Assembly (NCBI GenBank): GCA_907165135.1
Contig: OU015567.1
Coordinates: forward strand, 14,074,001-14,138,000
Direction of reading: 5' to 3'
Length of the DNA: 64,000 bases
Source: Oikopleura dioica
Taxonomy: Eukaryota; Animalia; Chordata
Shown: positions 6,802-64,000 of the stretch, piece after piece
Layout of the letters: each line of letters starts with the position of its first letter
How positions within the stretch are numbered: position 1 is the stretch's first letter
Notes under the pieces: generated by a model
Told to the model about the DNA's origin: nothing
What the model saw: only the letters and a program-made list of their open reading frames with translations
The model's database searches: none
Position numbers and translations under genes: made by a program

Positions 6802-6836
6802 GAGGATATATATTTACACTCTGAGAATCAACCAGA

Positions 6837-39000: not shown

Positions 39001-39949
39001 AAATGAGATATTTTCAGCACTGACATTTTCAGAGTTTTCGGGAACTGTCGACGGAGATCCATCGATTCTTCGAGCATCATTGGGATACTCAATGGATCAG
39101 TTGTTTCACCGGGCGGTTGAAGTCGTAACAGGGTGGACCCGACCCGGTCTCAATCACGATAGTCTAAGCTAGCGTCCTCATCAATTCCATTTTGAACCTG
39201 CAACCATCCTCAGCCCTCCAAAAAGACGGGATGATCTCGTTCTTTTTACCGTTATGGTGCGTGTTTTCAAGAGAAACCAATTTGTCATTTTGGGATCAAA
39301 GGAACAAACTTGATTTGCTTAGAAATTTTCTAGCGGCGTTTTTACACTTTGCCCGCGTCGTAATTCAATGATTTTAAAAATGAAATTAATCACGATTCTT
39401 GGAGCATCAGTAATTTATTTTCGGCCGGAAGAAACTTGCTTTTCATCAAAAGTAGGCTTGAACGTTAGGCTCTTAGGAGCAGAATGTGAAATTCTAGTGA
39501 CACGCACATGTTTTAGAGCTGCGTTTTTCTAGCTGAGCCGAAAATTGGCGCTTCTCGAGCTCCACCATCAATCTAACAGAAAGCTTCTATTGTGGGAAGA
39601 TTCAATTTTCTTGACCAAAACGGATTTTACAGAAATTCTTAACAAATTTTGTTAAAACTATTTAAAAAATAGTCGAAATTTTGCGTCAGATCTTTGAAAA
39701 CAGAATTTGTCATTGAAAAACACTTTGGGCGTAAAAATATCATCCCTTTTTTGAGGATGAAAGAGCAGCCGACCGAGAAAGGGAAAAACGCAAAAGTCGC
39801 GAAAGCTGGTCGCTAGTAGTTATAGTAGTGACCCGCATTCAGCCAATTTCTCTTGCTGCTCATTGGCTCGCTGTTTCGGAGCACTGTTCCCTGGCACTCA
39901 CGCTGCTCAAGGCGAATTTGTTCATCAGATTCCGTATGTACTCATAATT

Positions 39950-40075
39950 AAGCATATTCATATATTACGTAATAGTTACATAATTATGCATATAATATTC
40001 ACATATGCATATAATATTCACATATGCATATAATATGCACATATGCATATTGATTACGTAATAGTTACGTAATCG
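39950..40075. repeat. Subterminal tandem and palindromic repeats of the Polinton TIR
   Basis: 19-bp unit ATGCATATAATATTCACAT x~3, flanked by ATTACGTAATAGTTAC repeats. Confidence 0.85.
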
Positions 40076-40379
40076 AAAAAATGGCTAAAAACTAAATGCT
40101 GTTCATTTAGCTTCGTCGCCGGGCAAACTGAGCTGAATGTCGAGCTGCAGCTCGACCCCGATACCAGTGCTCCATATCGATCGGCAGAACAAACCATTCA
40201 TCAAACGGCGTCGCAGAACAAACCATTTTCCATCATGCCAACTGCCCAACAAGTCCAAAACTGTTTCGGTGCTTCATTACCCAAAGTGTACTTCCTGACT
40301 GGTACAATATCGATATTATACAACGCACTGTAATCTGTCTATTTTTAAGAAGCCCGAATGAAAATGATCAGTTGCCAAA

Positions 40380-40718
40380 ATGGCAGTCAACCCCGATGGA
40401 ATGCCAAATCCCGTACTGCTCAAAGAGATATATAATTTTAGCAGGTATATGGATCAATTTACCGTGGCAATCAACGACCGAGTACGTTACGAGCCAGACA
40501 CAGTTCATCAGCTAGGTGCTCGCATTCCTGGTTTGATAGAGCGGCTCCTAAGAATACGAGAGATTGTTTACGAAACCGTGTGGAACACCCGTCATCCTTT
40601 TCTACGGCATCAATATCGCGAAGCGCGTGAGACTTTTGTGAAAATGTTTCTCGATGTTGATCAACTACTGTACAAACATTTTCCTGACCAAATGCGCGCC
40701 ATTTCCGAATCCAAATAG
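40380..40718 (+). CDS. Polinton hypothetical protein
   Basis: 112-aa helical ORF; probable upstream exon from 40235 and intron 40302-40349 (frame not reconciled). Confidence 0.55.
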   Translation: MAVNPDGMPNPVLLKEIYNFSRYMDQFTVAINDRVRYEPDTVHQLGARIPGLIERLLRIREIVYETVWNTRHPFLRHQYREARETFVKMFLDVDQLLYKHFPDQMRAISESK

Positions 40719-40857
40719 AATCCCATCCATCAACCTTATTCAAACACAGTGCTGACCCCTTTTCCAATTTCATGCTACCTCTTTTCAAATAAAATGCGAC
40801 CAATTTTCTTCCATTCTTACCTTTTCGACCGTCCCTAGAGAATAAAACTTTTAAAAC

Positions 40858-40995
40858 GATAAAATGATGACACGAGCATGAGCCGAAAAATAATATGTTC
40901 CGTCTACACTATTCTATTCTCTCTTTGACAACTTATAAATGATAAAATGATGACACGAGCATAAGCTGAAAAAAATATATTCCGCTTACATTATT
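40858..40995. repeat. Imperfect direct repeat (period 83 bp) between convergent genes
   Basis: GATAAAATGATGACACGAGCAT at 40858 and 40941 with similar downstream sequence. Confidence 0.8.
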
Positions 40996-41133: not shown

Positions 41134-41832
41134 TCATTTATTCGATTTATATTTTACAGGTTTAGATTTAAAGAAATTTTGTGGAGTATTTTCAAAGTAA
41201 TAAAACATGGACATTCCATCAATAAAGTAGTGGTTATCGTCTTTAAAGGCGTTTTGTTTAACAAGCATATCAAGATATTTGGTAGTTAGTTTGCAGGTAA
41301 AACTTGGGCAGCAATCCTCGCGCAATATCTGAACGAGATCATAGCACTCTTGAAAAATTTGAACTCCGCGAGGACCATTTTGATCATAGCGAGCGCATTT
41401 ATAAGCATATTCAAATTTATTTTTATTTTCTAGCATTTGACGCGCAATTTTTTGCAGCTGGAAATCTTTTCGTTTTACAAGCAGTTTGTGTTTATCAAAG
41501 TCTGGAAAGTAACCGGCAGGTGTATTGCGCAGGCATGTATACAAAAAAAGTTGTTTAGGGTAAATTTCATTTGCAGGATCGTCACAGAGCAGTTTTAACG
41601 CAGTTTCATCAAGAAATTCGGTTTTGAACTTGCAGCAGTTTTTTGGACATCCATCGTGTCGCAGTATTTGCAGTATATCATAACCTTTTTGATTCAAAGT
41701 GCCAAAATTACTGCCAAGATCCACACCAGTTTTGATCCATTTTTCTTCATAATTGTCGTAATCATCAAGGTAGCGAGCGGCAAGCTCTTTTAAAAACTTT
41801 GTTTTACGTTTCTTGAGCTTTTGACAATACAT
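41134..41832 (-). CDS. Polinton unknown protein, two copies of the DxxQxLxxDxCx4C domain
   Basis: YDILQILRHDGCPKNCCKF and YDLVQILREDCCPSFTCKL. Confidence 0.75.
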   Translation of the reverse strand: MYCQKLKKRKTKFLKELAARYLDDYDNYEEKWIKTGVDLGSNFGTLNQKGYDILQILRHDGCPKNCCKFKTEFLDETALKLLCDDPANEIYPKQLFLYTCLRNTPAGYFPDFDKHKLLVKRKDFQLQKIARQMLENKNKFEYAYKCARYDQNGPRGVQIFQECYDLVQILREDCCPSFTCKLTTKYLDMLVKQNAFKDDNHYFIDGMSMFYYFENTPQNFFKSKPVKYKSNK

Positions 41833-41866
41833 TCTTAAATTGAAGCAAAATCAACAACGAATACAA

Positions 41867-42244
41867 TTAGTGGAATTTTCGGCCGTCCTCAAAATACACA
41901 TGTGGTGTGCACAAGCGAGCATAGTACAGTAAATGCATGTCGTTGGCTTTTTCACTTTTCAAATCGTCGAGGGTGTAGTGCTCGCCCAAGTCGGCCAGGA
42001 CGAGATTGGACAAAATGCAAATTGGGTTTGTGCAAGAGTCGCACTCGAGCACTTGAAGCAAATCCCAGCAGCGTTGAGTGATGATGTTGCGCTGCTTTGG
42101 ATCCTTTCTGATGTTTTCTTGGACTTGGCGGCATTCGTCGACAATGTCATCAAACTTGTAGTGATTTGTGTAAATGTCCATTGCAAGTTTCATGAGTTCA
42201 AAGTCATCGTGACGCTTGAGTTTCGGCTTTTCTAGATGCTCCAT
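41867..42244 (-). CDS. Polinton unknown protein, one copy of the same domain
   Basis: WDLLQVLECDSCTNPICIL. Confidence 0.75.
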   Translation of the reverse strand: MEHLEKPKLKRHDDFELMKLAMDIYTNHYKFDDIVDECRQVQENIRKDPKQRNIITQRCWDLLQVLECDSCTNPICILSNLVLADLGEHYTLDDLKSEKANDMHLLYYARLCTPHVYFEDGRKFH

Positions 42245-42289
42245 GTGTCTATAAAGTGCTAAAATTATAATCAGAAATCAAAAATGTTT

Positions 42290-42892
42290 CTAAAATTCAA
42301 ATTCTTTTCTGCCAAATCTAAAAAACTCGGCAGGAGTGGTTTCATATACATGAAACATGTACAGATCCTCGGGAAAGCGAGCGTCTTCTGGATCCATTGA
42401 TGCAATGGTTGAACAGAGACCTGCAAGGAATTTTGTTGTAAGTTTGCAGATTGAATTGGGGCAGGTGTCGCGTAACAAAATTTGAACCATGTCGAAGCCT
42501 TCTTGGGTTAGCTGTGGCATTTTATTCTTGTCGATGGTGCTGCAATCCCTCTTTACGATATTGTCCGAAAAATGGCTATCACAGAGGTGGCGGTGAGCGA
42601 TTTCTTGGAGTTTAAATTCTTGATGATGTTGAAGGAGTTTTCGGCGTTTATCTTGTCGTGTCTTGTTTGGTTTTACAAATGGGCGTTTTCTGCTTGTTGA
42701 TTCGTCTTCTTCCTCTGTGTCTGCTTCTTCGCTACTTGTTTCGCTGCAACTGGCCTTGGCGGTGTTTTCCTCTGATTCATCTTGGTCCAACTTTGATAAT
42801 AGATTAATTTAAATTTTCAATTGTATTTTTGATACCTTTTTGTCGGGGAGCTGCTCTTTCACAGTTTCTTCAGGCGCTTTGTTAGTTTCCAT
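42290..42892 (-). CDS. Polinton unknown protein: acidic N-terminus, NLS, one copy of the same domain
   Basis: ATG 42892, intron 42791-42835, FDMVQILLRDTCPNSICKL. Confidence 0.75.
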
Positions 42893-42968
42893 GTCTACAA
42901 CTATTAGTTTTATTTTCATTTATAAAAACATTTATTCTATATGCAGAAGGAATCAACAAGGAGCAAGC

Positions 42969-43601: not shown

Positions 43602-43859
43602 TTATGCTTGTCGGACTGTTGCGCGACTGTTTTATGAAAAATGCTGCAGTGCTCGAGTTTTTATCTGTTGTTTTCAGCCTTGGTGCGGAATGGTGGCGTA
43701 TTTCGCAAATTACGAAAATCTCTCGAATCTAAAATTCTAGAGAAAAATAACAAATTCTCGGAAAAATTTTTTTCTAGAACAGTCGTTGTTGTCGTCACTT
43801 TTTCCAAATTTTTGTCAGTTCGCCTTTTTCTGCAGTGGAGTGAAGACGAAAAAACGCAA

Positions 43860-44754
43860 ATGACTGTAAGTTTTATTTATAAGCTGGGGTTTTTTATAAT
43901 TTTGTTTGCGTAGCGAACACGGAGTACTACTCGGGCTACTACCCTGGCGCGAGCCATTGCCGATGCCGAGCAATTTCTTCGCAAGGCAAAACACTCGCTC
44001 AACACTGTAGTTGAGTGTTCTACTCTGCTCTCCGCCCCCGCCGCCGCCGCTGCAGCCACCACCAACGATCTTTCCTCTTCGTCTTCTTTTGATGAAGCGG
44101 TTTCCTCAGGTTCGGCTACTTCTGTATCCGATTCGGCGGTTTCCGCCGAGTCAATCGAACTCCCCCGAACCAACTTGCTCAAAAGCGGGACGAAAAAGTT
44201 GTCCACGCTTATTCGACCGTCGACTCGACGCACTCCAGCGAATGGCGATCGAACCGAGCCCCGACATCGCTCCCCTCTATGGCCGATATGTCCGATCGAC
44301 CACGAATCCCAACTCCACCACCAATCGAGCCCGAAGACGAAGGCATGGATTTGCGGGTGCCCCAGCCTAGAAACCCGGCTTTCCGACAGCCTCTTCGGGT
44401 TGAGCTCGCCGCGGAACCTGCTCCTGGAACCTGTAAGTTTTGCATCACTTTTTTTAGCGTCAATTGAAATTTTATTTAGCTCGCCAGATTCCCCTCCAGG
44501 ATTTCGAGCCGGTCTACTCGAAAAACCACAAGGACGAGATGACCGTGCAGATGGTACTTTCCATATTGGGGTACGATCTCCGCGGCTTGGAGCGCGAAGA
44601 GCTGGAAAGGCGAATCTTTGCGCTGGAGCAAGCGTTCGCCCGGCGTTATGGGCGATTTTGGTCCGATATCGTGAACGGTCGGCTCAAACTCGAGCTGCTT
44701 ACGGCTAACAACCGTAAAATGATCATCCCCGGCTTTGGTTGGAAGAAGCAATAA
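43860..44754 (+). CDS. Polinton hypothetical protein(s); frame ambiguous
   Basis: ATG 43860, introns 43866-43913 and 44433-44479. The globular-looking C-terminus (RQIPLQDFEP..GWKKQ) is in frame with ATG 44279. Confidence 0.5.
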
Positions 44755-44896
44755 AAAGGCAAACTTGTCTGCGCTATTTTTAGCTGCAAATAAAAACTTT
44801 TACTGTATTATCTGTGTATTGTGTTTTTTTTCAAGCGGTCTAAAGTGAAGTTAAATTAATAAGAGCATGCAAATTCGAGGATAGGTAGTGAGTGAT

Positions 44897-45279
44897 CTAA
44901 AATTCGTGACTTTCTATAGAGGCTTCAATGTGATGTCGGAATTTTTTGTAGCACATGTCTTCAAATTTGTCGAGAACTTGAAGAGTGCATTTTTTGAGTG
45001 GGGCAAGTTCGTGAGAATCGTCAAGTGAGGCCCAAAACGGCTTTTTAAGGATTTCGCGCATATCCTCCATTCGATGCAAAAGCTTAAAAGCGTTGTTAAT
45101 TTTATTAATAAAAGTTAATTTACCCCGGGTACTCGAACGCCGATCGGATTCAGGAATTCTACCCCTTCGTGATTACATGTATCGATTACGAGCGCTGCAA
45201 ATTGTCTAGTGTCTTTTATGTATTTGTTGATTGTGTCCAGTTCCGAGTCTGACGGGAATTCGAGCTCCTGATTTTCCAT
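44897..45279 (-). CDS. Polinton small hypothetical protein
   Basis: MENQELEFP.. joined through intron 45083-45123 to LLHRMEDMRE. Confidence 0.6.
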
Positions 45280-45534
45280 TTTGACCTAAAAAAGTGAAAT
45301 AATGGCGGCTCGCGAGCATTTATATAGCCCATTTTGATTAATCGCGAAAGTTTTTAATAATGAGCAATTGCGCGCACGTTTCTATGCCCGCATAAACAAA
45401 CTGTTCTAGAACAGTTTTAATTTTTTTAAAAAATGATTTTCGTTGATTGGGTTAGCGAGTTGCCAGCGACGGCGCTAGCGATCAATTCATTTTTACTTTT
45501 TTTTCAGAGTAAGCGAAAAATAACGCGCCCAGTT

Positions 45535-46689
45535 ATGATGCTAATTCGAGAATACAAGTACTATTTTGACAGTGTCAACGCATTTCCAGTATTTTTTACT
45601 AAAAACGATGAGAAAAATTGCCGACAAGAGTTGCTTCAGACGCTCAAGGGACAAGCGAGCTTCCGAAGAATACAAGTGATTCGCATATACATTGAATCAG
45701 TTTTTAATAGAAAAACCAATAAAATTGAGCAAAAAGTTGTCACTCGGTCGTGGCAGGAAATTGGTAAGATTAATCTACAGATTAATATTCATCTTTTCTT
45801 TAGTGGATTTTGGGCCATTTAATGCTTACCATTCGCTTGGAATCAATGCTGCTGATTGCATTTGGCCGTATTTGAATGAACCGTATTTTGGAGTTACTGG
45901 TTTCCGAGTAAGCTCGTTGAATGTTGGCTTGCGAAAAATTACCAACAAGTGCCATTTGATCCTTGAGTGCGTTCACGAATGCTTTAGCGGAAAAGCGCCA
46001 GTTAACACGATGAAAATTACTTTTCCTAATTTGAAAAAGTTTTTTAATCGTATAAATCCTGGCAATCTGGCAAAATTCCCCTTCCGCATCGTCTTTATCC
46101 TGTATATGCGCCTATGGGCAAAAGAAGTCTTCCAGAGGGATCGCCGATTTATCAACGCTGCGAGTGGTCAAGTCGATAACGAGGGCATTGATCGATATAT
46201 AATGGAAATCTTACGATCAACTGGGATCCCACATCATGAAATCGATATAACTTTAGCTCCTCGCAACAAGTTTTTGTACTACTTGACGACTTGCCGTACG
46301 ATTTACATTGGATATTTCTATCATCATCCATTTCGCCACTACCGAAAACTGCCGTTCTATGACATGTTCTTTTTTGGCAACACTGACGCTCTAAGAGAAC
46401 ACATTCGGGAGCTTGAAAAGGTTGCGCTTAGTCGCAATTACGATCTGGTAAGCGCTCCTTTGCAAATTTTTTTACTTGTTTTTAGTTTATGCCGTTTTTT
46501 ATCGAGGTAGAGCAAAAAGAAGAGCCAAAAGTGGTTGTATTCGATTACACTGTAAAAGGAGCCAAGGACGCGAACGTTGCTTTCGATCCACTGGTTGAAA
46601 TCGAAAAATACGATCTCTCTCTTTCGTCACCTAGCGCCAGCGCTGTCGCCAAACGTCTTTACGAGTACAAATTTTTTGCCGACGACTGA
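45535..46689 (+). CDS. Polinton unknown protein (paralog A)
   Basis: Three exons, introns 45764-45803 and 46448-46485; shares the PNLKxFF..WAK..DxEGxD domain with the next gene. Confidence 0.7.
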
Positions 46690-46742
46690 GTCTTTCAAAT
46701 AAACTCTTTTTTATATTTTTACATTTTGCGTTGTTATTTTCA

Positions 46743-47901
46743 ATGAAAAAAATTTTTACAATCGAGAAAAATGACCATCTGCACGAGTATAAATTTCCGT
46801 TTTTCCACCCGCATAGAAACAAGTTTTCTTCGTCTCAACCTGTTGTTTCGGTTTTCCCGGCTCGAGCGTACGATCTTATCTCTTCGAAAATTGTCTTTTT
46901 TATAAAGGACAGTGTCGACGAAGCTACAGGAAAGACAGTACAATCCGTTGTGGTTAGACAAGTTGAAGAATCCAGTGAGTAGTCTTTGTTGTCTTCACGG
47001 GCATAAGGGTTTTTTAGCCGCCGAAGGGCCGCATTTGGCAATAGATGGGACGATGAATGATGAAATTCCCAGTTACATTTCCACCAAGCACACATTGCGT
47101 CGACGAATGAGGATCGATACTGGCGACGAAGCTGAAAGCAGACCGATTAATTACGGTTTCAAAAAAATGAATGGAGGTCGAGTGTTTCGCGAATTCGAGT
47201 ACGCAAACAAAAAAGTTGTTTGCAACCAACAAAAATACGTGTATCCGAATTTAAAAGAATTTTTTCTTGGCAAAACGCTAATCGAAAATTTCTATTTTTG
47301 TGAGCACGCGATTTTTCTCTCGTACATTACGTCATGGGCAAAAGGTCTTTTACAAAACGACTCGCGCTTCTTACTCGACATGAAAACTCGCGAATACGAT
47401 CAGGAAGGCGTGGATATGGCCATTTTCGATCTGCTTGAAAGAGCAGGCATCGGCAAAGACGCTCTCGTGGTTGACAAAATGGACAAGGCAACTGTAAATG
47501 GCACCCACATTGTCGTGTCTTTTATTTTCAACGAAAAAAATTGCGGCGATATCTTTGGCGGTTATCGCCATCTTTGCGCAGAGTGGATTAAGCAGCTTGA
47601 AGCGCACCGTAAGTTTTCTTTTTCGCGACCTGCTTTTTCAAATTTCAATTTTAGCTGAATTCGAAGAATCTCACCACAAATGTCTGCAGCTCAATTTGAG
47701 AAGATACGACATCGGCGGCTGGGACGGGTTCACATATTCTGGCCAATATTATAAACGAGTTTATTTTTATCCTGCGATACCTAAAACTGGCATTTATATA
47801 CGGCCCTTTTAAGTTGTTTTTGTTATCGAAAAGCTACACGATGTGGCATTCACGACGAGGTCTGCGAAGAAATTACTGAATCCAACTGTATCTTTATGTA
47901 G
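46743..47901 (+). CDS. Polinton unknown protein (paralog B)
   Basis: Introns 46975-47017 and 47609-47654. Stops at 47812 as written, or at 47901 (..CIFM) if one T is missing in the run 47807-47810. Confidence 0.7.
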
Positions 47902-47968
47902 TTTTTACTGATTTTTATTTGTTTTTTTATAATAAAAGTTTCATGTCAAAATAATAAACAGTCGTTGA

Positions 47969-48703
47969 TTATTGAGACAGGCCAAAAATCCATGGAGCTC
48001 CACCTAAACCAGCAATTTCGCCAAAGTAATTTGTCAGGACGCGAGGTTGATCGGGATGCCAAATTTCTCTGATGAGAATTATATAGTTGTAGTTGGGGAT
48101 TCGTCTTTCTTGAAATAGTTTAACAGCTGAGTTGTAAGCATCTACAAGACCACACTTGGTCGCAATTGTCTTATTAATGCCGCAGTCTGTGTTATTAGGC
48201 ATTAATACATACGATGTCATGCAGTTTCTTTAAAATAAAAATTCAAATAAATATACAATTATTTTCACGTACCTGTAGGTGATTGCTTTTTTTGATTTTT
48301 CGTAGAAATTTTGGGCCACAAAGATAAGACTTACGCCAAGGTGCCTACGGCCATATGTTAGTAAATATTCGCACACATTGTGTTCAATGCAAGCGGACCA
48401 TAAATCATCTATTACAATTAGGCTTTTGCTGTCGGATTCTATTTGAAAAGTATCGTCAACCCATTCTTGCGAAGGGAGACCCTCGAGTAAGTATAAATGT
48501 TGATTAGAGCCAGGTTTAACGTCTATGGGTTCTAGCCTCGGCATAAAGTAATAAATGTTTTTTATATCCCCTTTTATGCCGTCGCACTCTATAATATTTT
48601 TTACGAAATTTGATTTACCTGTACCAGTGCTGCCCGCAATTAACAACGAACACGGATGCACAAAACGCACATCCGGGACGAATTTAGTTAAATGTTCAAA
48701 CAT
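47969..48703 (-). CDS. A32/FtsK-like genome packaging ATPase
   Basis: Walker A GSTGTGKS, Walker B LIVIDD, RHLGVSLIFVAQ; intron 48228-48272 restores ITYRNC. Confidence 0.92.
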
Positions 48704-49080
48704 TTAACGTAGCGGACGTTGAAGTAGCCTTCTACTTTGAAGTCGTTTTTCGCTCGTTTCGAGTTAAAGTCTGGAGGCTCGTAACCGTCGACGTAGGCGA
48801 TGATGGTCTTTTCCTCCAAGTCCTTTTTCAATTGTTCGCGAAAGTACGCGCGAATTTCCGAATTTTCTTGATCCCAGCCGAGAGCGCCAGAAATGCACCG
48901 CAACCCGATTTTTTGGTGCTTTTCAATCAGTTCTCGCCCAGAAAAGTCTTTCTCACCGTGCTTGAAGTCGACACAGTCGCCACCGGAATTGTAACGATTA
49001 CTTCCGAGTAAGGTTAACCAGGTACAATTCAACTTGATTGCAGTGCACTCTTTTTCAGCTTGTTCCTTCAGTGCTTGCAT
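48688..49080 (-). CDS. Polinton hypothetical protein
   Basis: ORF from ATG 49080, downstream of a TATA box and overlapping the ATPase start. Confidence 0.6.
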   Translation of the reverse strand: MQALKEQAEKECTAIKLNCTWLTLLGSNRYNSGGDCVDFKHGEKDFSGRELIEKHQKIGLRCISGALGWDQENSEIRAYFREQLKKDLEEKTIIAYVDGYEPPDFNSKRAKNDFKVEGYFNVRYVKCLNI

Positions 49081-49112
49081 TTTTCGTTGTGCACTGTTTC
49101 TGCTAGAAATGG

Positions 49113-49174
49113 CCTTTTTATACAAGATTTTTGGGCTGGCACTTGATGGCGCCCGCGCGTTGACTATAAAAAGC
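49113..49174. promoter_or_regulatory. Bidirectional core promoter with divergent TATA boxes
   Basis: TATAAAAAG on - (49114-49122) and on + (49165-49173) around a GC-rich GGCGCCCGCGCG, between divergent gene blocks. Confidence 0.6.
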
Positions 49175-49321
49175 GGCTACTGTAGTTATTTTGCTTATTT
49201 AAAAATTATCGTTTTCGGGATAAGCAGCTTTGGAGAAAAAGTCGACTTTTAGTTGTAAGTTTTTAAATAATTATTATTATTATTCAGTTTATTTTGGACG
49301 AATGTAAATAACCTTTTAAAG

Positions 49322-50401
49322 ATGAAGTCTGTTGATAGTAACAAAGCACCTGTAAATGGCGGCTGTTATTTTTCATTGTCTCAAATGCTTAATATTTGCT
49401 CATTTTGGGAGATTAATCCCTTAACTAATAGAGTTAGAGTCCGCGCGCCGAAAACCAAAGCTGAGCCGTATCCAGATTATGACTCCGAGGAGGAGGAAAC
49501 AGCCCGCCTGGTTGCAGGATTATGCAACAGGAGCATTCCTTACAGCAAAGATGGACGAACGAGACAGGCAAGAGGAAGAGCGACAGAAGGAGATGAGAGC
49601 GGCAGCGAAAGCGGCAGTGTCATTAGCGGCGAAGGGGCGGAGGATGAAGAAGCCTCGTATGAGCGCAAACGCACATCAACAAAACGTAAACGTAAATTCA
49701 ACGACGCCTTCAACGATGAGCAAGAGTATAGAAACGATTCCGACTACGATGAAGAACAACATGGCGACAAGCGCAGACGGAAAACAGGGCGGCTCCGCGC
49801 TGAGCACGAGCGGCATTCTCGATCGATGGACAAAGAGCATTTCAAGCAAGGTAAATCAAGCTCGTGGAAAAACGCTGGAAAAATTGCGGGACGAAAACGT
49901 AAACGATCCCCCACCGACGGCTTTACTATCACCAGCGATGATTATAGAAGATTCCGGCGTTCAGTTTATGACAACTCTAATAGGCGCAAGGAATCCCGTA
50001 ACAGGCGAGCTGAAAGTCCCTCAAGAGTTGATAGTGACCAATTATCCGAGAATGCCACCGCCCACGACTCCGAAGATGATTATGACAAACAAGAATCCAT
50101 CTCTCGCACACAAGATTCAAGAGCTGCCAGACGATACTCGCGAGAGCGATCAGTTATTGTCGAGAATCCGGCGCACAAATTTAAACGAAGACGGACCGGA
50201 GATTGGGAGTCGCCCGCTGGACGTGTCACTACCGTTAGAAAGGCCGCTTCCAAGTCTGCCCAATCCAAATTCTCTGGCAAGCGGGGTCGACCTAAAAACA
50301 TTTCAAGAGCCTCAACTCCAGAGAACGTCAAGAGCGTTCACGACGAACCCGACAGCGACGACGCAGTCCTCGATTCCGCAAGCAACTTTTGGTCCCGATA
50401 A
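49322..50401 (+). CDS. Overlapping-frame basic/acidic disordered protein with an AT-hook
   Basis: 359 codons open in an alternative frame of the integrase gene; KRKRK, KRRRK, RKRKRSP and GKRGRPK. Confidence 0.55.
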   Translation: MKSVDSNKAPVNGGCYFSLSQMLNICSFWEINPLTNRVRVRAPKTKAEPYPDYDSEEEETARLVAGLCNRSIPYSKDGRTRQARGRATEGDESGSESGSVISGEGAEDEEASYERKRTSTKRKRKFNDAFNDEQEYRNDSDYDEEQHGDKRRRKTGRLRAEHERHSRSMDKEHFKQGKSSSWKNAGKIAGRKRKRSPTDGFTITSDDYRRFRRSVYDNSNRRKESRNRRAESPSRVDSDQLSENATAHDSEDDYDKQESISRTQDSRAARRYSRERSVIVENPAHKFKRRRTGDWESPAGRVTTVRKAASKSAQSKFSGKRGRPKNISRASTPENVKSVHDEPDSDDAVLDSASNFWSR

Positions 50402-51372: not shown

Positions 51373-51412
51373 TAAGCATAGCTATTTATTATCTATCAAC
51401 AGGTTAATTTAG

Positions 51413-51882: not shown

Positions 51883-53792
51883 ATGGAGGAAAATTACGGA
51901 AATCTTTTGTATTATAAAAAACCGGCTAAAAAAGGAGAAGATCCTTATGGGGGCTATAAGCTTGTTCATACGATGGGCCAGTTTCACCATTCTGACGGTC
52001 GAATTGAATTTCAAATGCCACCCGATAAGTTACCCATAAAGCTTGATCGGTGTATGTTGATTTTTCAAGTTCGAATGCCCTCTAATTTTGTGCCTGACAA
52101 CGGTTTCGCGACAAAACTTATTGACAAGCTCAACTTTTATATTCTGGACGATTGCATTTTCTCAACGTGGACAGACGGTCTCGAGTACTTATTTTTTAAC
52201 AATTTTATAAAAAAACTAAATTACTCGCCAACTGCTCAGGAGATTGAATTATTTCCCGAGGGCCATTACGACTCTTTTGATGCCGATGCGGACGAATTGA
52301 ACGAAATCAAATGCATAAGTAGCGGGATGACGTTGGTGGAAAACCGTCAACAATATGCAATGGCTGAATGGGTGGCGCTACCGAACGCACTTAAAATTTC
52401 AAAAAACATTGCGACAACTATTACCTGCGATGGACTATATCATCGTTATTTGGTTCGCTCTCCATTAAGTCATGGTTTAGCAAGACAGCCTCGTGTTTTA
52501 CCATCAGCTTCGAGGTTAAAATTTGAAATTTCGACAGATGCTTCGGATCCTACAGATTCGTCGATGAAATCTGCAAAAGCGATTAAACGAATGGCAATGC
52601 GCTGGAATGATTATCAAAAGTGTAGAACTTTGGAGAGCAATTTTTTTGAAGTCGACGCCGATGGTAAAATAACAAGAGAGCTATTTTCTTGGCCTTTTGT
52701 TAACGGACTTGAAACGACAACCGAATGGGTAGAACATGGAACGGAAGAAGAATGCGATTGCACTCCAGAAAAATATGTTAAAAAAGAGTATCTAGGAATT
52801 GATCAATTGGGCGGCGATTTTGTGTCAAAGTCGCAACGATCCAAATTGTATTTCAAAGGTACTCCAGGCGTCGCAGCCAAAGAGGGTGTAAAGGCTGTCG
52901 CAGCAAAACCGTCTACATGGGCGCCCCACAAGGTAAAACGAGTTATTCCCAGATACGAGCGATTTACGGATGAGAATGATGAAGACAAGACAAAATGGGT
53001 TTATTTCTGGTACAAGACTGGATTAGATTTTAAACTCTCGCAAGATAATCTTCGACATTTGCAGATTGAAAGTGTTTTTTGCACGCCAAAAAAAGATGAG
53101 CGACCATTTATTGTTGGCAAACGACAAGCAAAGATTCCTTTTTATAACCCGAGACTTACAGTTGGAGTTTGGACAAAAGGATATCAGTCGTACATTGTTG
53201 AATGTTCGCGCGGAGAATTTCCAGATATGATTATTTTTACAGGAATGAGCAGCGCTAGAAAAACTCCGAGTTTTGATCGCTGCATAACTAAGACTCAATT
53301 GTACGAGCCTGGTTTTGAAATTGAGCAGGTAGAAATTATGATAGATGGTGATCGTATTCATGGAACTCCTTGGACGTCTGGACAAGATCATTACTTGAAT
53401 TTTCTGCGCCACAACGGCAGATATGCCAACAAGTCAATAGGCGAAGGGTTAAACTTTTTCCAATTTTGCAACCATAATTGGCATGTGCCCATTTATTTGG
53501 GTGACCGTCGAGGAATGTCTGGGCTCGTTACGATTCGAGTTACATTCAAAAAGCAACTGGGCGCCGATTGGTGCCCATTTATAATGAAGTTTCACGTTGA
53601 CAACCTTATTCTTGATGCTAATAGAAATGGTAAAATTTCCTTTTGTTTTTCATTTGTTTCAAAAAGTTTTTAGAGGCGACTGTGGAAAGCAAAGCTGTTT
53701 CAGCAGTTGTTAACAAACCAGATGTTTCCGTTTCTGCCTTGGCCCAAGAAATTATTCCTCAAATTGGGGTAAAACGAAAGCTGGGACGATAA
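51883..53792 (+). CDS. Double-jelly-roll major capsid protein (Polinton PY-like)
   Basis: VPDNGFATKLIDKL, LNYS..LFPEGHYD, PLSHGLARQPRVLP, GEFPDMIIFTGM and IEQVEIMIDG resemble Polinton MCP motifs; intron 53630-53673; basic tail KRKLGR. Confidence 0.8.
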
Positions 53793-53893
53793 AGGCTGCG
53801 GTAGCAGCGCTCGAGCGACAAACGCCAGAGTGTTCTAGCGACAACTCTCTACTGACGCAATCTTACGTTTTTTATAATAAATATGTTGTTGTT

Positions 53894-56800
53894 TTGTTTG
53901 AATTTTATTTGTATTGCATGAAACGGTTCTTACCAAATAGACCTGAGGGTCTTTCTAAAAGTGATGTTGAAAAAAGGAGGCGCCGTCTTATGGCAGATCC
54001 GAGTAGTCAACGTCATTTAGAAAATAATCGGCAGGACATGAGTGATGATGAGGAGGAAATTCGGCGCAATATTTCTCGACAACGATTTGATCCATTGGCA
54101 AGTAGTAGCAGCAGCAGCAGCGAGGACGAGTGCGATGATAATGGCGCAGACAACGTTGATGATGATATTGATGGCTACACTCCCGCCGATCCGCTGGATG
54201 ATAATGAGCAAGGCACTTCAAATATATACGACACTGTTTTGATGGGAATAAATTGGTGGAATTATTTGAAAAGAATTTATCCCAAAACGCCAAAAAAGAT
54301 AGCGCCAACACTCCGGAAAGAGTTATGCAATTATAGTACTCGAGAGCTTGTCAACGAATACGGATCATTTCCTACTAGAGCTGTATTGCCAAAGCTTGAA
54401 CGACATCTAAACGTTGATATTTATGTCTTGTATGGTGGAACTTTTACACCGTTGGGAATTTCGTATCGGCCTCATAGACTTACCAACCGGGAAAACATTT
54501 CTCAGATAATAAACAGATTGGAAAGTGCTTCACCTTTCAATGCAGGGCGACCATGTGTTGTACTTCAATCAGCAAGACCTTATTTTCATCGACTTGGTAC
54601 TTTTCATGTTTTGCCAACTAGGCGGACATTTGAAGATCGGGAGCGAAATTGGGTAAGTATTTGGCAGGCGCTGGTACAAATACGATGGCCAAAATTACCA
54701 CAGCGCGAATATTTTATAAAAATTGCCGCTATAAAGAAGGAGCTGTTTGGCGATGGTCAACGTGACACTCAGTTTACTATTGCGGATGGAATTTTCAACA
54801 AGATTCGTCAACGTTACAGCGTTAATATACGATTATTTGTTGGCAAGATAATCAACGACAATGTCAATTTGAAGCAATGCGTTTATTCGACTATTGGGAC
54901 TGCGAATTGCGTCAATTTAAACATTTTGGTTGCTCCGCCTCAAGAAGACGAGTTTGCTCGAGAATTTAAAAAATTGACGAGCGTATGTTATCGTCAATTT
55001 GATAATTACCCTGGACTCTTACCTCTCTATGCAGCAAACAAGGATTATCAGCGTAGAGCGACCAAGTGCAATCGTTTTCTTGACAAGACGAAAATTGCTC
55101 AGATCTTGCGGTGGACCAAAAACGATAATCATCAATTTCACGACGCGTCTGAAACGTTTTTGGATGATGATGATGATGATAGCATCAATTCCATGGAGCA
55201 GGGACTTCACATTGCTAACGCTGCCGAGGACTGCGATGAAGATGATATTTCCTTTGTCGATTTTGATAGATTGACGGAAAATGCAAGCGAGTTTGGGAAT
55301 GCGCGCAAAAACCCTTTTATTGATGCTGAATGCAATGTCGAAGACAACAACGACGCCGAAAACGACGAACAAGCATTCGAGTATACTTTTAGCGATTGGG
55401 AGTCAAATACAGAGGCAAGAACAGTTTTGACTCAGGTTCCAGCAGCTGAGCAAAATGTTGATGACCATAGCGATGCGGGCACAGGGTCTTCTAGCGTTGA
55501 AAATAGTCTCTACGCAGAGTACAAACCAATACGAAATGTTTTAAGCATCATGCCAAATGTTTTTCTGATGCTACACTTGTCCGAGTGCTTTCGGATCGTC
55601 ATGTGCGGGCGTTACCAAAGTGCAAAACTCGACACTGTTTATTTACAAGCTCTAAAGCAAAAAAGATGAAAAAGCACGAAATGTGTTGTTCAACTGAGCC
55701 AATCGACATTATTCGACAAACGGTGCAAAGTTGGCGAGTGTTGGATCATGTAAAAGAATTGGTTAGCGAAGGTTATTTGCCCTCATTCGATTACGTCCAA
55801 GAGTATTTTATAACATACGACATCGAATGTATAATGTCACGTGGCATGTTTTCGTCGGGCGACAAGTTTCACAAGTTGGCAACCTTGTGCACGTATTCAA
55901 GCGACGGAGAGCGTAATTGCTTTACGCGTAAAGGCGAAGGGTTCGAAGCTACTCTTGTGATGCTTACCGAATTTGTCAACTATTTGATTATTCTTCAGCG
56001 CGAAATGGTTCGCGAGCTTCCCGACTGTATCAACAATGGAATTACTTTTTACGAGCAAGAAATCGAAAATGAAAACAAAAAGGAAAAATCCCGTTGTGTG
56101 CAAAAAGTGGCGTCTTTTCGAAAAAAGCTCAAATATTTGAAAGACTTTCACAAATTGAAAATTTACGCTTGGATGGGCGAAAGATACGACATGTGCATAT
56201 TATTTCCTTCTTTGGTGTCGGTGCTATATCACTTTGTTGGCGGAGATACAAAGCTCATCAATTTTATAAAACGCGCAAATGGATATATGATGGTTGAGGC
56301 AAATAATCTGAGTTTTCGCGATTTCAAAAATTATACCTGTCCAATGTCGCTAGAAAAGTTGGCTCGTTCGTGCGGACTTGACTCTAGTTTATTTGTAAAG
56401 GGTACCTTTCCATACGAATGGTACACGACAATGGATCAGTTACGAAAAGCGACACAAATGGCTGCGTATCCCTGTTTCTATTCTTCAATGACAGTTGCAT
56501 CCAATAGTTTTGTCCAAGAGATGGATGATATTGTTGCCGACAAAATAGCCGCGCAAGAGTGGCCAAACGAGAGGGACGCGCTGATATCGCGAATTATTTC
56601 CTTTCTTCACTTGCAATCTATTCATGAGGATCCTTCGGCAAAGGAGCACTTTGAGAACAAGGGCGAGAGCGAGCAAATTTCAGAAGGCATATATTCTACA
56701 CTTGACCTGTATGAAGATTGGAAATCTCAAATACGAGTTGCGCTGATCTGGTGCGACACATTAAAAGATGGCGATTCGACAAGGAAGACTACAATGCGCA

Positions 56801-59429
56801 AAAATTTTTCAAGTTTTCACCGCGAAAATAAGAGGCAAGTGTGCTTTTGTGGAAAAAGATGCGCCAAGAGTGGGAAGAAGATACTACTGGAATCGTTACT
56901 CGACCAACAATGATGAAATACCTTATCAATTACAATTATAACGACTGCATATTGTTGGAAGGGTCAATTCGCGCATTTGGTAAAAGTAATAAAGAAAAGT
57001 TTGGCCTTGGCATTCATTCAGAGTTGAGCATTTCTCAACTAGCGCAAAAGATTGCTTTTCTCAAGTATAAAGACGATTGCCCGGGCATTTATTCGACCTC
57101 GCCAAAGTTTCCATTTTATCTGCGAGATATGCGTAAAAATCTGACTGGTGGGATTGTACAAGTGATGCATCGAGCAATTTACTTGAATGGCGAAAATCCT
57201 AAAATCCCAGAGGCGGCGTGGAAAACTGAAACTGGGCGAATTTACAAAAATGTAACAACATTTGATTTCAATAGTTTATACCCGCAATCGTTTCGACAAT
57301 ATTTACCTTGTGGTCCTGGAATAATGTATCAACTACAAAAAATTGGCTACTCTTGCTCAAATTCATCGGAAGAAGAAAAACGGTTTTTTGGCATAGGAAT
57401 GTTTAACCAGCGCGAAAACACATCACTGGAGTCTGTTCGCTGGTTGGAATATCTAAATTGGTCAAATCGGCACGATTTTAATGGTGCAATAAAACATTCG
57501 TATAATTTTGAAGAAATGCAATTTGGTCCATATTTTATTGATGGCTACGCTGAAGCGATTTATCCTGAAGCTGCTGATGAGCGAAACTGGATAAAAGTGA
57601 CACCCTTTAAAAGCGTTAAAAAACGTTATCTTTTCGAGTATAGAGGCTGCTCTTTCCACCCGTGTACGCAGTGTAATCGACGACCATTTAGAGCGGCGAA
57701 AAAAGTCATCAATGGGCCCGACGGCCACCCGATTCAAGTTGACTTTACTCGCGACGAGTTGCTTGCCAAGGAAGACGCTCGCATACACGCCATCGTTGAC
57801 GATATAAGACAACGCGACGGTCTCGAGGATTGGGGCGCTCCGCCAGTTTTATTAAACGAGCTTGGAATAGCTGTCATGTGTGAAGGTCCTCAAAACTTTC
57901 CGCATACGCTCGTCATTAAGATGGCTTGCCGCTGGATAAAAGAGTGGCGCAGTTTGGAACTTGACGACGACGAAAGCGCTGCTCCGTATTCCAAAACGTA
58001 TCCGTTTCTCTTTAAAGGCGCAAAAACCCGTTCTGGAATAAAGGCCGGCAAAGAAGGCGTTACTCACGACGATTTTAAAAGAGCGTTACTCGATGAAGAT
58101 GAAAATGGGAATAGTAAATTCTTTGGATTTGCCATGGTGGATCTGTGGTCGCCCCCAGAAGTTGTCGAAAAGTATATTCATACGCCACCAATATTTGCAC
58201 GAAAGGAATTAACTTTGGAACATTTGCAAGGTGACTTGGCAAGAACGCTTTCTGAAAAACAAAAACAAAGAATGTTTCCCTGCGAGGAGAATGTCTTTTG
58301 CTTCAACGTGGAAGACTATTTTATTTCGTCAGAGTTGTTGGTCTATTATTTAAAAATGGGACTCAAATTTCGCGTCAAATACTTTGTTTCATACTACAGG
58401 GATAAACCGTTTAAAGATTTTGTAAATACGTTGGTGGCGGATCGAGTGAAGGCTGCCCAAGCAAATGATACATCGATGGCAAACTGGATTAAATTTGTTC
58501 TTAATTCGGCTGTTGGATACTTTGCAATCAACCGAGCAAAATTCATGAATACAAAAATTCTTTCATCTGGCGATTTGTATACAGCACTGCGAAATCCGCG
58601 CTTAAAAGCGCTCAACACGCTGCGCAATGAGGGTCATAATTGCGATCCGCTGCACGAGGCTCTCTTTAAGAAAAACGTGTCACCCACATAACCGCTCTAC
58701 AAGTTCAACTTTTTGTTTATCAAAATAGCAAACTCTTGTTTTTTTAATTTCGCGACGTTCTTATGAAATATATGAAAGATGGATGGACAAAGTTATGCTA
58801 CGCAGACACAGACTCGCTGATGGTGGCTATGACTGCTGACTCGTTGCGAGAATGCGTAAAACCATCTCTTGTTAAAGAGTGGGATGAGGAAATGGTGCCT
58901 AAATGGTTTGCAAAGGCCGGCGACGCAGCGTCACAAAAAGAACCAGGGCTGCTAAAAGAAGAACACCGTATCAACAAAGGGTGGATGATTGCTCTAAGCC
59001 CAAAATGCTACATCATGACAGAATGCGACAGAAACACGATTGAAGAAGAAATCTTTGATCCAAAAAATCGCCATCGCGTGTATGAACTAATTGACGAGCA
59101 TGAAAGGGCGCAACTTGGAGCGCTGGAGGTGAAACGATCAGCAAAGGGCTGCTCCCAATCTATTAAACTCAGGTAAGCAAAAACGATCATTTTAGAAATT
59201 ATGAAAATTATTAAGACACTTGGACTATTTAGCTGCGCTAGTTTCCGACGATATGGAACAGAGCGTCATCAAAAGCATTTCGCTTTTTCAATTTGATCAA
59301 ATTGCAAAGCGCATGAAAACGAAAACGCTCACAAAACGCGTCATCAATGCTGCACTAAAAAAGCGAATAATTCACGCGGATAAAATCACAACTTCTGCCC
59401 TCCAGAATGCTGACGGAACATATTTATAA
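53894..59429 (+). CDS. Protein-primed family B DNA polymerase, disrupted as assembled
   Basis: ExoI YDIEC, ExoII GERYDM, KGTFPYEW, motif A FDFNSLYP, motif B KFVLNSAVG, motif C YADTDS, KEPGLLKEE, ALSPKCY, SAKG; intron 59173-59215; three -1 frameshifts and in-frame TAA at 56829 and 58745. Confidence 0.93.
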
Positions 59430-59473
59430 ATTTTGTTTTACAAACAATCTCATGTAAATAAATTACTTTTAGA

Positions 59474-60486
59474 ATGGATAACATAAGTCTTTTAAATACA
59501 TTAAAATCTGATGCTAGCGAGGTCGAGAGTCAATCGGTTATCAATGAAAGCGGAAGCGAAATTCGCCAACTTGGACAGACAGAGTTGATGAGAAGCGTTT
59601 ACGGCGGCAATTTGTTTGAAACAGCTCGACAAATTCGCAAAAAATATCGACTGTTTTCAAATTTCCTGGACGATGAGCCGCCCTCCTCGGGCGAAAGTAT
59701 GACAGATTTTATGTCAGCATATGCGCAACAAAAGGGTCAATATGAATTAACTCCACAGCAGATTGAGTGGTTTTATCCTCAGTCAAAATCCAACGAGAAT
59801 TTTGATATTCTGGACGAAGCGCTTTCGCCCAATACGCGTGCTGAAGAAAAATTTTTGCAAGAATTGGTGCCGGAAATAATCCCACCTGACGATTATTTTG
59901 AACCCGAGGAAACGCATGCGCTTCTTGGAGGCGACAGCCCCTTGAATTACCCAATCAAGCACTACATAAGTAAGTTAAACTGCAGACAAAAACGATTTTC
60001 CGATTTTTAGATCAATCATGGCGGCGCTACCCCTTACGAGTTGGCGCTGATAGAATGGGCCGTTATTCAACTTTATGCAACAAGTATGTCATTACAGTTT
60101 TACGCGATCGCGACATAGTTCAATTGGTTCGTGATTTGGTGCACAACTTTTCTGGTCTCTTGAGAGTTAGCGTGGACGCATTTTACAGTACAAAATCCAC
60201 TGCAACTGTTTACAATTGGGAAAAAGGTCAAGTTGAAACTACAACAAAAACTGGCATTGTGTACGCAAACATGTGGGGATCTGTGAATACGACTGAATTT
60301 GTGCGAAACGAAAAAGACCTGGACGATTTATGCGCTGAGATAACTCCTGCTGGATTTGCTGATGGTGTCCTGCGAAACACGTTTCACTCAAGGGATGTGT
60401 TCTCGGAGAGCAATGTTCGTGTGCATAGAATTCTGGCGTATCAAATCCTGCTAAGACAATACCCTACTGCATGGTTGTTTAAATAA
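59474..60486 (+). CDS. Probable stand-alone terminal protein (TP)-like gene
   Basis: Intron 59970-60010 joins two ORFs. The C-terminal half (LRVSVDAFY..VYAN..VRNEKDLDDL..SESNVRVHRILAYQILL) resembles the domain normally at the N-terminus of Polinton pPolB. Confidence 0.55.
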
Positions 60487-60535
60487 AACTCGTAGATTAA
60501 AAAATTTTGTTTATTATAAAAGTACAAAAGAACAT

Positions 60536-60603
60536 AAAACAGTGAATAAGAAAAACAGTGAATAAGAAAAACAGTGAATAAGAAAAACAGTAAATATGAA
60601 AAA
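60536..60603. repeat. 17-bp tandem repeat
   Basis: AAACAGTGAATAAGAAA x3 plus a degenerate copy. Confidence 0.9.
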
Positions 60604-60709
60604 CGGCAAGTTGAACATCGCAGGAGCAGGCCAGAAGAAGAGTGGTGGTGGTGGCGGTGGAGGTCGAGCTAAAATGCGGTAAAATTTGAAAACTTTTTTG
60701 AAAATTTAC

Positions 60710-61673
60710 CTATTTTTTCAATTTTGGAGCATCATTGTCCAAGAGCGTGTCGGTGTTTCGTTTTGTAGCAGTTGGCGTTTCAGGGGGCGGATCATTGTGA
60801 TACTGCAACACGATTGCTGGATTGAGCGTCCGGTTTGGGAAGCAGTGGAGGCACGGTTGAGCTCGAATCCGAATCTTGTCCTTTGAGACCACAAAGTAAG
60901 TCTCTTGATTTAGAAACTCGAGGCTTGTCGTCAACGAGGCAGAGTATCGAGTCGAGGTCGGCGGTGGCTGTTGCTGCTGCTGCTGCACTGGAGACGTCGG
61001 CATCGGTCGAGCCTGGCGATAATAATCGTAATGAGCTGGATACTGTTGGCTGGGGAAGAACGTTGGCGGAAATCTCTGCGGTGGTTGATATGGAGCTGGA
61101 GGAGGTGGCGGGTGAGGCGCCGCTGGAAAAGCAAGAGGAGGTTGAAATTGGTTCCAGTAGTTGGTATACGGGCAGTTGCTCCATTGACCATCCTCCGAGA
61201 GTTGGCGAGGCCAAGGGGTCATTCCATTGAGATTTGCATCTATCGGCGCGGGAATCGGTGCAGGTGTCGAACATTGGGGCGGACGGGTGGGAATCGGTGT
61301 AGGCGCTTGCGAGGGATAAGACTGCATCAAAGTCGTCGCTGCCAAGGTAGTCGTCAAGGGTGAATGAAGAGTCGGAGAATTCGGCTTGCTGCATATCGGC
61401 GTGTGCTCTTTCTTGACTGTCGCTTGCAAAGACGATTGCTGGGGAACGACTTGATCGCTGCTCAATTCGGCTGTCGACGCTGACAACGAGTCCGGCGTCT
61501 GAGCTTGCGGAATACATGCGTTTTGAGAGCTTGTCGTAACCGTCTGCTCCTGCAAAGCGCTTGTTACTTCCTCGTAGTCGTCGTCGTCGCAAAGATTCAC
61601 AACTTCTGGCGGCGTCTTGACAATCGATTAATTTGTTTCGATTTTAACAAGAAAATTTTACCTGAGACTCCAT
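60710..61673 (-). CDS. Pro/Gln/Thr-rich disordered protein with a SIM-like motif and CxxC
   Basis: ATG 61673, intron 61616-61661 gives MESQTPPEVVNLCDDDD. A further intron 60669-60709 suggests an extra exon if one A is missing. Confidence 0.65.
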
Positions 61674-61764
61674 CTTGACTCTTGTTGTAGCTGGAAAATT
61701 TGTCAGCAGGAAATGAGTGAGGCAGCGGCGGCGGCGGCGAGTATTCGGATGGAAAAAAGCAAGG

Positions 61765-63998
61765 CTAAAAAGAGTAAAAAATGAAGCGCACGCGAGGGCA
61801 GTAAAAACGTACCGTAACAGCGCCATTATTTATATCTTTATCGACGTTTAGCGAGTTGTTGCTTGGCAGTACGCTCGATTGCGCAAATGTAAGTTGTTCC
61901 GGTGCGCAGCGTTTTTTCGTAGCTTCGGAGTCTATATATGTTAGATCAATAATGTCAATCATCAGTCGAGCAAAACCTGTTAAATTTGGTTGAGTAGATA
62001 ACCACTTGTTGACATCGTGTACGCCATAAATTGCAAAATCGCTTCTGCTCAAGTTGTAGCGCGTTTCCGCTCGTTTAAAGACCCGCTCCATTTGCAGACT
62101 CTTGAAATACAAATAATTTGGAGGTAAATTGTTTTCAAGTCCGTTTGTTGACCTTATTCGAGTATACGCGCTGTTTAGGCGGCTCAAGCAACGATCGCAC
62201 CGATCTTTTTCCAATTCAGCGGCAGAGGTGGCGATTCCATTGGCCAAATAAAGACAGAGTTTTTGTATTCGTTGCAAATATGCGAACATGTCGTCTTGGT
62301 CGGATAAAGTTTTGGACATGTTGGCGGACAATGTGTAACAAATCCCATGTAAGCCACCAAAAGTTTGTTAAGAAAACTCTTTATTTGACGTTGCTGATGG
62401 CAGTGCAATTGAGCGCGCGATTTCAGATGAATGGCCATAACGCGAAATCTGTTAACGCGCTGGCGGTCGCTTTCCTTTTCTCCAAGAGCATACGTTTGTA
62501 GCGTATCCATTTCATAAGAAGTGAATCGCAGGACTTGGCTCGCTCGCGCTTTCAAAATTTCAATAAATTGCTCAAAGGCCTTTCGCATTGAAAGCAACAA
62601 ATGAAAATGCGCATTGGGCACCAAATCTTTGATGCAATAAAGTCGAAAGAGATCCTGGTTAAATTGCTTGGCGAGTGAAAGATTTTCCTCGTCGAAACAG
62701 ACCTGACCAGTAGGGGCGACCGGCGGGCGAACAATATTGGTCGAATGCGGTTGAACACGGCTTTTGAGAGATTTTGCTCTTCCGCAGCGCCAATCCCCAA
62801 GCATCATTGGCGGCAGCAACTTTGCCAATTCATGGCTTGATACGCAAGTCGACTCAAGCAGCGGACATTGCAAATAATACTTGGCCGTATGAGCCACAGA
62901 TCGCCCAAGCAGAAGCAAATACGCAAACAAATCTGTTTTGTTAAACGATTCCGAATGAAGATGAAATGACGAGGCTTTGTAATTGTACGCTTTTGACTGG
63001 GTTGGAGAAAAGCGAAAATCAACTTCGCCCTCTTCAAATTTATAGCGAGGGAACAGAGGCGAATATTTTGGAGGACCTTTTGAGGCTGCTACATGCTCGT
63101 CTACTCTGTCCATAAATTCGCGATGGAGCCTTTTTCGCAACGGATTGTCAAGTTCCAGCGCTTTATCGCTATCGAAAAAAGACACTTTGTTTGTTTGTAT
63201 AAACTCTGCCGAAGTAAGCCGTATCGCTTCCTCTTCAGTTGTAGAAGGTTTACAATTTTTCCAGAGTCGATACGTAAGAGGTGTTCGAGCCGCTGCTGCA
63301 GCAGCATCTGCAGCATGTTTTTTGGCGATTATGTACGATTCGGTAGAAAATGCTGCCAGCAAGTTGCAAATTTCACGAGTAATGTCGATACCTCTATCCA
63401 TAGAAGGGGAACAACCATCTTTATAAAAGCATTGTGGCAAGGGAGCGTTTACGGGTCGCAAAAGATTTGAAACAATTGTTGTTCCGTCGCTCGCTGGAGA
63501 AAAACATGGATCCAAGAGCGCGTAATGAAATTCTAAAATTGCCAAAGCCCCGCTCGCCGTGCTCCATTTTACATTTCCAAGTAATTGATCAGGCGCCAAG
63601 TCGATACTTTTTTCCGATTGCATATTTCTCCACGCGTCAATTGTCTCGGCAGGCGTTTGATTTTGCTTAAAGAGCGCGGCGTATTGTGTTGATTCCAAAG
63701 TTTGTTGATCCGAAATCGTGAAAAATGGCGAATCTTCAAATGGGAGCAAAATTGGGCTTCCCGCGCCAGGATCGGCGGCAATTCTGTTCCGGATTTTGTT
63801 CCAATCGTCAGGAGTCGTGTCTTGAACCAACTTTTTACGCCAATCGGTATCGGCAGCACCAATGTCCGTAAATTGCATGGCGCAAGATGTAAAGAAGCCT
63901 TGTTTGTTTTTACACGCGGTGAAAATCGTTTCTTTGATTGCAGATTCAAAGGCGTAATCGTCTGTATTTGTATTGAAATCAAAGCGTCCAGTTACTAA
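61765..63998 (-). CDS. Large Polinton unknown protein, 5' end outside the window
   Basis: Frame open from the window edge through 62184; probably continues via a -1 shift near 62330-62360 into the 61765-62331 ORF. Confidence 0.65.
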
Positions 63999-64000
63999 TC

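Follow-up and report, generated by a model that had tools for sequence, protein, structure and literature searches.

Are the interrupted genes of a Polinton/Maverick element in the genome of Oikopleura dioica simply broken, or are they divided by introns of the host's kind? The window analyzed here is a stretch of 64,000 nucleotides (contig OU015567.1, positions 14,074,001 to 14,138,000 of the forward strand, assembly GCA_907165135.1), and all positions are counted from its first letter. From position 39815 onwards it contains a Polinton/Maverick element in a larvacean-type host, in which short GT-AG segments divide the genes for the packaging ATPase, the integrase, the major capsid protein and DNA polymerase B. 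These segments lie at positions common to diverged relatives, with diverged interiors between conserved exons. They are very likely spliceosomal introns that were gained early and have been inherited since.

The first letters of the element, from 39815 onwards, are AGTAGT, which is the (AGT)2 motif given for Maverick ends in PMC8097293; the motif is present as a single copy in the window (39815-39834, + strand). The right end is beyond the window, and the element runs on past 64000. The Polinton identity proposed in the first-pass annotation is borne out by four core genes and by the left end, which support an integrated, capsid-encoding element of the Polinton/Maverick type. The term virus here means capsid-encoding and known from genes alone; this copy is broken. 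Among named sequences, O. dioica gene models are the closest relatives of the element. As assembled, the polymerase and integrase genes carry frame breaks, at which short A or T runs make decay and assembly error look alike; this copy is probably inactive. Tandem repeats are found inside the element at 39985-40050 (19 nt), probably within the terminal repeat, and at 60536-60599 (16 nt).

All 16 GT-AG segments listed in the first-pass annotation were recovered, each with GT..AG ends on a single strand (11 on +, 5 on -), a length of 38-48 nt and an A/T content of 58-84%. A join test was applied: joining must leave 25 or more open codons to either side, and the unspliced frame must close within 20 codons. 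It was passed by 15 of the 16 segments, and by 224 of the 1,393 remaining GT..AG segments of this size (38-48 nt) in the element. A GTAA donor occurs in 12/16 segments (background 7.8%) and a T-rich acceptor in 13/16 (background 18%); these figures, like those of the join test, are partly circular, as the segments were originally picked on such traits. Only nine background segments of the element have a GTAA donor together with a T-rich acceptor and an A/T content of 65% or more. Of these nine, two are alternative boundaries of introns already listed, and the only two to pass the join test lie on the strand opposite the polymerase or within the repeat-rich left end. In their GT..AG ends, donor consensus and pyrimidine-rich acceptor the segments agree with U2-type introns, as do 5/16 in keeping a fixed position while the interior drifts.

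The comparison with relatives is independent of how the segments were picked, and supports five of the 16 introns: 48228-48272, 50889-50930, 53630-53673, 59173-59215 and 45083-45123. Relatives were sought as DNA in metagenomes (1/64 parts scanned), where two loci were found; contig L005 was used and L006, a 19-residue match, was dropped. Four queries against viral contigs returned no close relative (four loci from one query were distant or short and not used), and no usable relative of the element was found in prokaryote genomes.

The A32-type packaging ATPase gene (47969-48703, -) consists of two exons separated by the phase-2 intron 48228-48272. Its match to PF04665 (E 2.9e-5, 24.1 bits, cut-off 22.8) identifies an A32/FtsK-type packaging ATPase. 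The ATPase of L005 is about 68% identical and contains a 44-nt GT-AG segment (contig positions 2831-2874) at the identical codon and phase. Over the 83 codons compared in exon 2, identity by codon position is 0.72/0.83/0.45; 57 residues are identical, 34 of them through a different codon. The intron sequences themselves are unrelated between the window and L005, with shuffles reaching the observed score in 143/1000 cases for the ATPase intron and 514/1000 for the integrase intron. Among 24 ATPase relatives (51-99% identical), 16 stop on the junction codon and eight run into unrelated tails. None of the 24 continues into exon-2-like sequence, though the searched length range admitted full-length forms. 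In one relative (P0020), 59 of the 60 residues before the junction are identical, and its protein implies a segment of 43 nt in place of the 45 found here, which would be a frame-changing difference in length.

The retroviral-type integrase gene (50472-51372, +) is divided by the phase-2 intron 50889-50930. Its first part matches PF00665 only with E 0.06, under the cut-off, and the assignment to the retroviral (RVE) type is based on the homolog alignment: 118 of 150 homologs span the junction, 117 of them gap-free across the ERFxRT motif, with mostly N at X. In L005 a 46-nt GT-AG segment (237-192) lies at the same codon and in the same phase. A frame break occurs near 50750-50790 in this copy, and the frame is open upstream to 49425. 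In a quick tree of 58 rows, made up of the window and of whichever of the best 58 matches had at least 95 aligned residues, the window falls within a group of 12 rows with a support of 88. The sole unbroken row of that group is an O. dioica gene model, and most rows outside it are unbroken.

An Arg/Ser/Asp-rich ORF (49322-50401, +) overlaps the frame upstream of the integrase (49425-50780, +) by about 1 kb, and both frames are open in L005. At the 5' end the codon-position pattern speaks for the Arg/Ser-rich frame. In 49750-50000 and after 50250 it favors the frame upstream of the integrase, which matches an O. dioica gene model (E 7e-45). The two are possibly a true overlapping gene pair, the alternative being a by-product of composition.

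The major capsid protein gene (51883-53792, +) contains the phase-1 intron 53630-53673, followed by a last exon of 38 codons with a basic cluster. The exon of 582 residues was modelled (pLDDT 71.8); the best match in PDB is the major capsid protein of mavirus (E 1.5e-11), and the top matches in a viral library are all major capsids, which identifies a double jelly-roll major capsid protein. In 10 of 11 relatives with 32-42% identity, the alignment breaks off no more than a few residues from the donor. A gene model of O. dioica continues past the junction with EATIV, which is exon-2-like, and the relative P0034 has a read-through of 16 codons followed by EATIQ. The basic cluster in the tail is present in the window, P0034 and P0041.

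The gene for the protein-primed DNA polymerase B (53918-59429, +) is divided by the phase-2 intron 59173-59215. The match to PF03175 (E 6.4e-16) is above the curated cut-off and places the enzyme in the protein-primed family B. In this copy a stop codon stands in frame near 58745, and the frame is broken near 55560-55670, 56670-56830 and 58670. One relative (P0005) stops on the junction codon, and one gene model (P0006) aligns across the junction. Four other relatives (P0002, P0003, P0004 and P0193) end or diverge at or just after VYQE (about 58730 in the window), where the window and P0005 read through; a sister lineage may have another intron at the VYQE site.

The fifth case is an accessory gene on the minus strand with the phase-0 intron 45083-45123. 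An unsplit paralog of 112 aa (40380-40718, +) aligns over both exons, with a score of 74 against 25.7 +/- 4.5 in shuffles (0/2000 reaching it). Sibling copies had been set beforehand as the test of the proposal, and the outcome favored it: all four core genes share intron positions with diverged relatives, and one accessory gene adds to them.

These observations bear on the reading that the segments are never spliced, and either separate half-genes that are translated independently or are A/T-rich insertions that arose by chance in a dead element. It would fit the missing RNA joints and the 16% of random GT..AG segments that also pass the frame-joining test, and it may apply to the segments at 40302 and 60669. 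At the junction, however, the second exons lack a start codon, and they match the continuation of unsplit homologs in register; the GT and AG ends remain constant while length and interior vary. This was judged the least probable of the explanations considered.

Real introns might also be latecomers, inserted into this or recent copies after integration by intron-making transposons, as in the Polinton-like proviruses of dinoflagellates. This copy is decayed, and secondary insertion is the main route in PMC11957031, as far as the available text of that paper goes; the 45083 intron is missing in its paralog and some polymerase relatives end elsewhere, which points to ongoing gains or losses. Against recent insertion by such introners, which leave many similar copies, the 16 introns show no sequence likeness to one another (best pairwise score 13, shuffles 10-16), and no intron 16-mer is repeated within the window. 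Codon and phase are moreover shared with relatives at identities from 68% (DNA) down to 32% (protein ends). Late insertion is thus largely refuted for the five introns with comparative support, and as an explanation of the whole it has very little probability. Turnover of introns may nevertheless continue in the lineage, because four polymerase relatives end at VYQE and the 45083 intron is absent from the paralog.

A third explanation accepts the introns and takes their carrier to be a host-domesticated relic that descends vertically at fixed loci rather than a replicating element. The copies seen are often broken or truncated, and the RNA reads, uninformative as they are, show no activity. 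On the other side, the full set of core genes is kept together, and its order is the same in the window, in L005 and in three O. dioica gene models that follow one another (integrase, capsid, polymerase); an intact-looking end motif is retained. One annotation lists at least two loci, which lie on different chromosomes, and environmental data contain many diverged variants. A domesticated relic is very unlikely, if the best placed of the three alternatives.

Several points weigh against early-gained, inherited introns in a Polinton. The bare motif count is weak (12 observed against 5.85 +/- 2.65, with a maximum of 15, in 200 block shuffles), and since the signal figures are partly circular, the case rests on comparison with relatives. 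L005 is the only relative seen as DNA, and the others are inferred from protein ends. The O. dioica gene models are predictions, so that spliced and unsplit forms are both possible there. The likeness of capsid exon 2 extends over a few residues only (pairwise E 0.015), and the group of split integrases relies on that quick tree with its support of 88. Nine introns are without homologs, and two more (40302 and 60669) are doubtful. An adenovirus-like protease and a minor capsid gene gave no Pfam match in 29 + 17 ORFs/exons, several genes are unnamed, and the element exceeds the window. Finally, four of 24 RNA runs gave 12 partial reads over 44100-64000, none of them 95% alike and none with joints, so that the element is barely touched. 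The mapping spanned 44100-64000 without a host-gene control, with the three introns left of 44100 outside it; with so few reads and no such control, the RNA result is silent on expression either way.

If the segments are spliced, host RNA polymerase II would transcribe short, separately polyadenylated genes in the nucleus, and the major spliceosome of the host would remove the mini-introns as it does the host's own introns of 40-55 nt. Without splicing, translation of the integrase and the polymerase would end at the donor, the ATPase would be short of its last 86 residues, and the capsid protein would lack the basic tail, a likely nuclear import signal. Given sites shared over deep divergence and selection on both exons, ancestors or related copies probably multiplied via spliced transcripts over a long time. 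The first-pass annotation had read the host-like gene architecture as a sign of long nuclear co-evolution, and real, old introns in four core genes and one accessory gene support that inference. A broader proposal is tentative, and we lean slightly against it: that this is a widespread and still replicating lineage of larvacean polintoviruses, which needs the host spliceosome for every core protein, has kept its intron sites down to about 32% capsid identity, gains host-like transcripts and a capsid nuclear-import tail through splicing, and has been missed or called dead by ORF-based surveys.

About 14 of the roughly 16 introns claimed at the outset are credible, and 40302 and 60669 are the doubtful ones. 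The segment 40302-40349 (+) is doubtful as a coding intron because it joins just 22 + 27 codons, and because the neighboring ORF has its own ATG at 40380, aligned with the start of its paralog. The well-formed GT-AG segment 60669-60709 (-) lies directly after the stop of a 301-codon frame and fails the join test, and is thus a 3' untranslated intron or a chance occurrence. Signals and frame joining are the evidence for nine predicted introns, those beginning at 42791, 43866, 44433, 45764, 46448, 46975, 47609, 59970 and 61616.

The genes around these introns are as follows. Three ORFs occupy 41134-42920 (-), the last of them split by 42791-42835. They contain four copies of one domain (41134-42808, -) with a D-x-C-P-x3-C-K-L-like motif; in four pairwise tests the score was reached by 0/2000 shuffles. 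The predicted intron 43866-43913 (+) follows right after an ATG. Very short first exons, with the ATG two to four codons ahead of the donor, are found at 43830-43865 and 61662-61700, and a T-rich AG shortly upstream of the ATG at 43860 is a possible trans-splice acceptor. A small gene (+) with the predicted phase-1 intron 44433-44479 ends at 44754, with AATAAA at the stop. AATAAA or ATTAAA is found near nine of 11 predicted stops, which is weak evidence in A/T-rich DNA.

Two genes of three exons each follow. The first (45535-46689, +; predicted introns 45764-45803 and 46448-46485) has no Pfam match. A likeness to the two-exon gene 59474-60486 (+; predicted intron 59970-60010) was unsupported, as 1,769 of 2,000 shuffles reached the score. 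The second (46635-47812, +) has the predicted introns 46975-47017 and 47609-47654. Its middle exon (47020-47607) resembles the AEP primase domain PF23162 in Atlas (0.95, 174/256 features), a weak lead below the recognition level on which Pfam is silent; a single-sequence structure model (pLDDT 32.6) was useless. An earlier guess of a protease for this exon was dropped, as the sub-threshold Atlas result points to the primase domain and no Pfam match exists. A primase next to a protein-primed polymerase would be unusual. Between the integrase and capsid genes lies an arginine-rich ORF of 66 aa (51413-51613, +), which we take to be protamine-like and a candidate DNA-condensing core protein. A Pro/Gln-rich ORF (60710-61675, -) has the predicted intron 61616-61661 four codons past an ATG, and an ORF with no Pfam match (62184-64000, -), 604 codons long or longer, leaves the window.

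The host introns were compared with those of the element. A script gave 11 host intron candidates in the window, 10 with GT and one with GA that overlaps a GT alternative; they share the build of the element introns, with a median of 46 nt. Intron medians of 48-51 nt and 11-12% non-canonical introns are given for O. dioica in the accessible part of PMC8008620. At that rate, the chance that 16/16 introns are canonical is about 0.15 (hand calculation). The element introns are indeed all GT-AG, as the first-pass annotation stated; the contrast it drew with the host carries no weight, because of this chance and even before the bias of looking for GT-AG is considered. The GC/GA donors it reported for host genes in the window were not confirmed, and without RNA these candidates are no real test. 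The host part also contains about 10 dispersed copies of short palindromic, MITE-like elements (14470-33570; for example, one with arms 28808-28898 and 28974-29064, 95% complementary), TAACCC runs at 14596 and 21616, and genes at 1385-2284 and 3200-6813 (-) with a CUB domain and with hemicentin-like, VIT and VWA domains.

The statement that Polinton core genes are usually single ORFs agrees with papers on Mavericks and endogenous viruses, whose available text describes core genes as intronless (PMC8097293; Widen et al., 10.1101/2022.07.12.499685; PMC10120064). Intron-free core ORFs, a recognition trait of intact copies and not a definition of the family, are not what is found here, as four core genes are split. 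Polinton surveys define intact copies by intron-free ORFs (PMC8097293), or use prokaryote-type gene callers for the reason that endogenous viruses lack introns (PMC10120064). With inherited core-gene introns such surveys would truncate or discard whole lineages, and the database proteins that end at the junction are direct evidence of this. No description of inherited introns in Polinton core genes was found in the literature searched, supplements and Repbase aside, which includes the available portions of PMC12220804, 10.64898/2026.07.28.741278, PMC8502044, PMC11296320, 10.1101/2023.08.22.554363, PMC8008620, PMC13326754, 10.1101/2022.07.28.501842, PMC4856440, 10.64898/2026.10.13.758929 and PMC11244446; earlier notice is possible.

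The introns argue that the host's machinery transcribes this lineage in the nucleus, and that a giant-virus factory is not the site. They also offer characters by which intron gain can be dated in a chordate that evolves fast. This significance is tempered by the missing RNA proof, and by splicing being ordinary in other nuclear DNA viruses. Host spliceosomal introns are used by nuclear DNA viruses or viral inserts of other groups, namely adenoviruses, polydnaviruses and the endogenous giant viruses of green algae. In adenoviruses, splicing acts on shared leaders and alternative transcripts, whereas one short intron lies within each core gene here.

Among the Mavericks/Polintons, those of vertebrates (Barreat and Katzourakis 2021, PMC8097293) share with the present element polymerase B, integrase, ATPase, major capsid protein, the (AGT)2 end and mostly decayed copies, as far as the accessible text goes; the protease and minor capsid protein they possess were not identified in the O. 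dioica element. The Mavericks of nematodes (Widen et al., 10.1101/2022.07.12.499685) likewise have an animal host, the same core set and a double jelly-roll capsid, but the introns described in the available part of that work are only in captured cargo genes, unlike the core-gene introns found here. The nearest published case is that of the dinoflagellate Polinton-like proviruses (Gozashti and Corbett-Detig 2025, PMC11957031), in which spliceosomal introns likewise lie inside capsid-bearing elements. According to the accessible text, the introners of these proviruses are repeated, mostly young and inserted after integration, whereas the introns of the O. dioica element are mutually unlike and common to diverged lineages.

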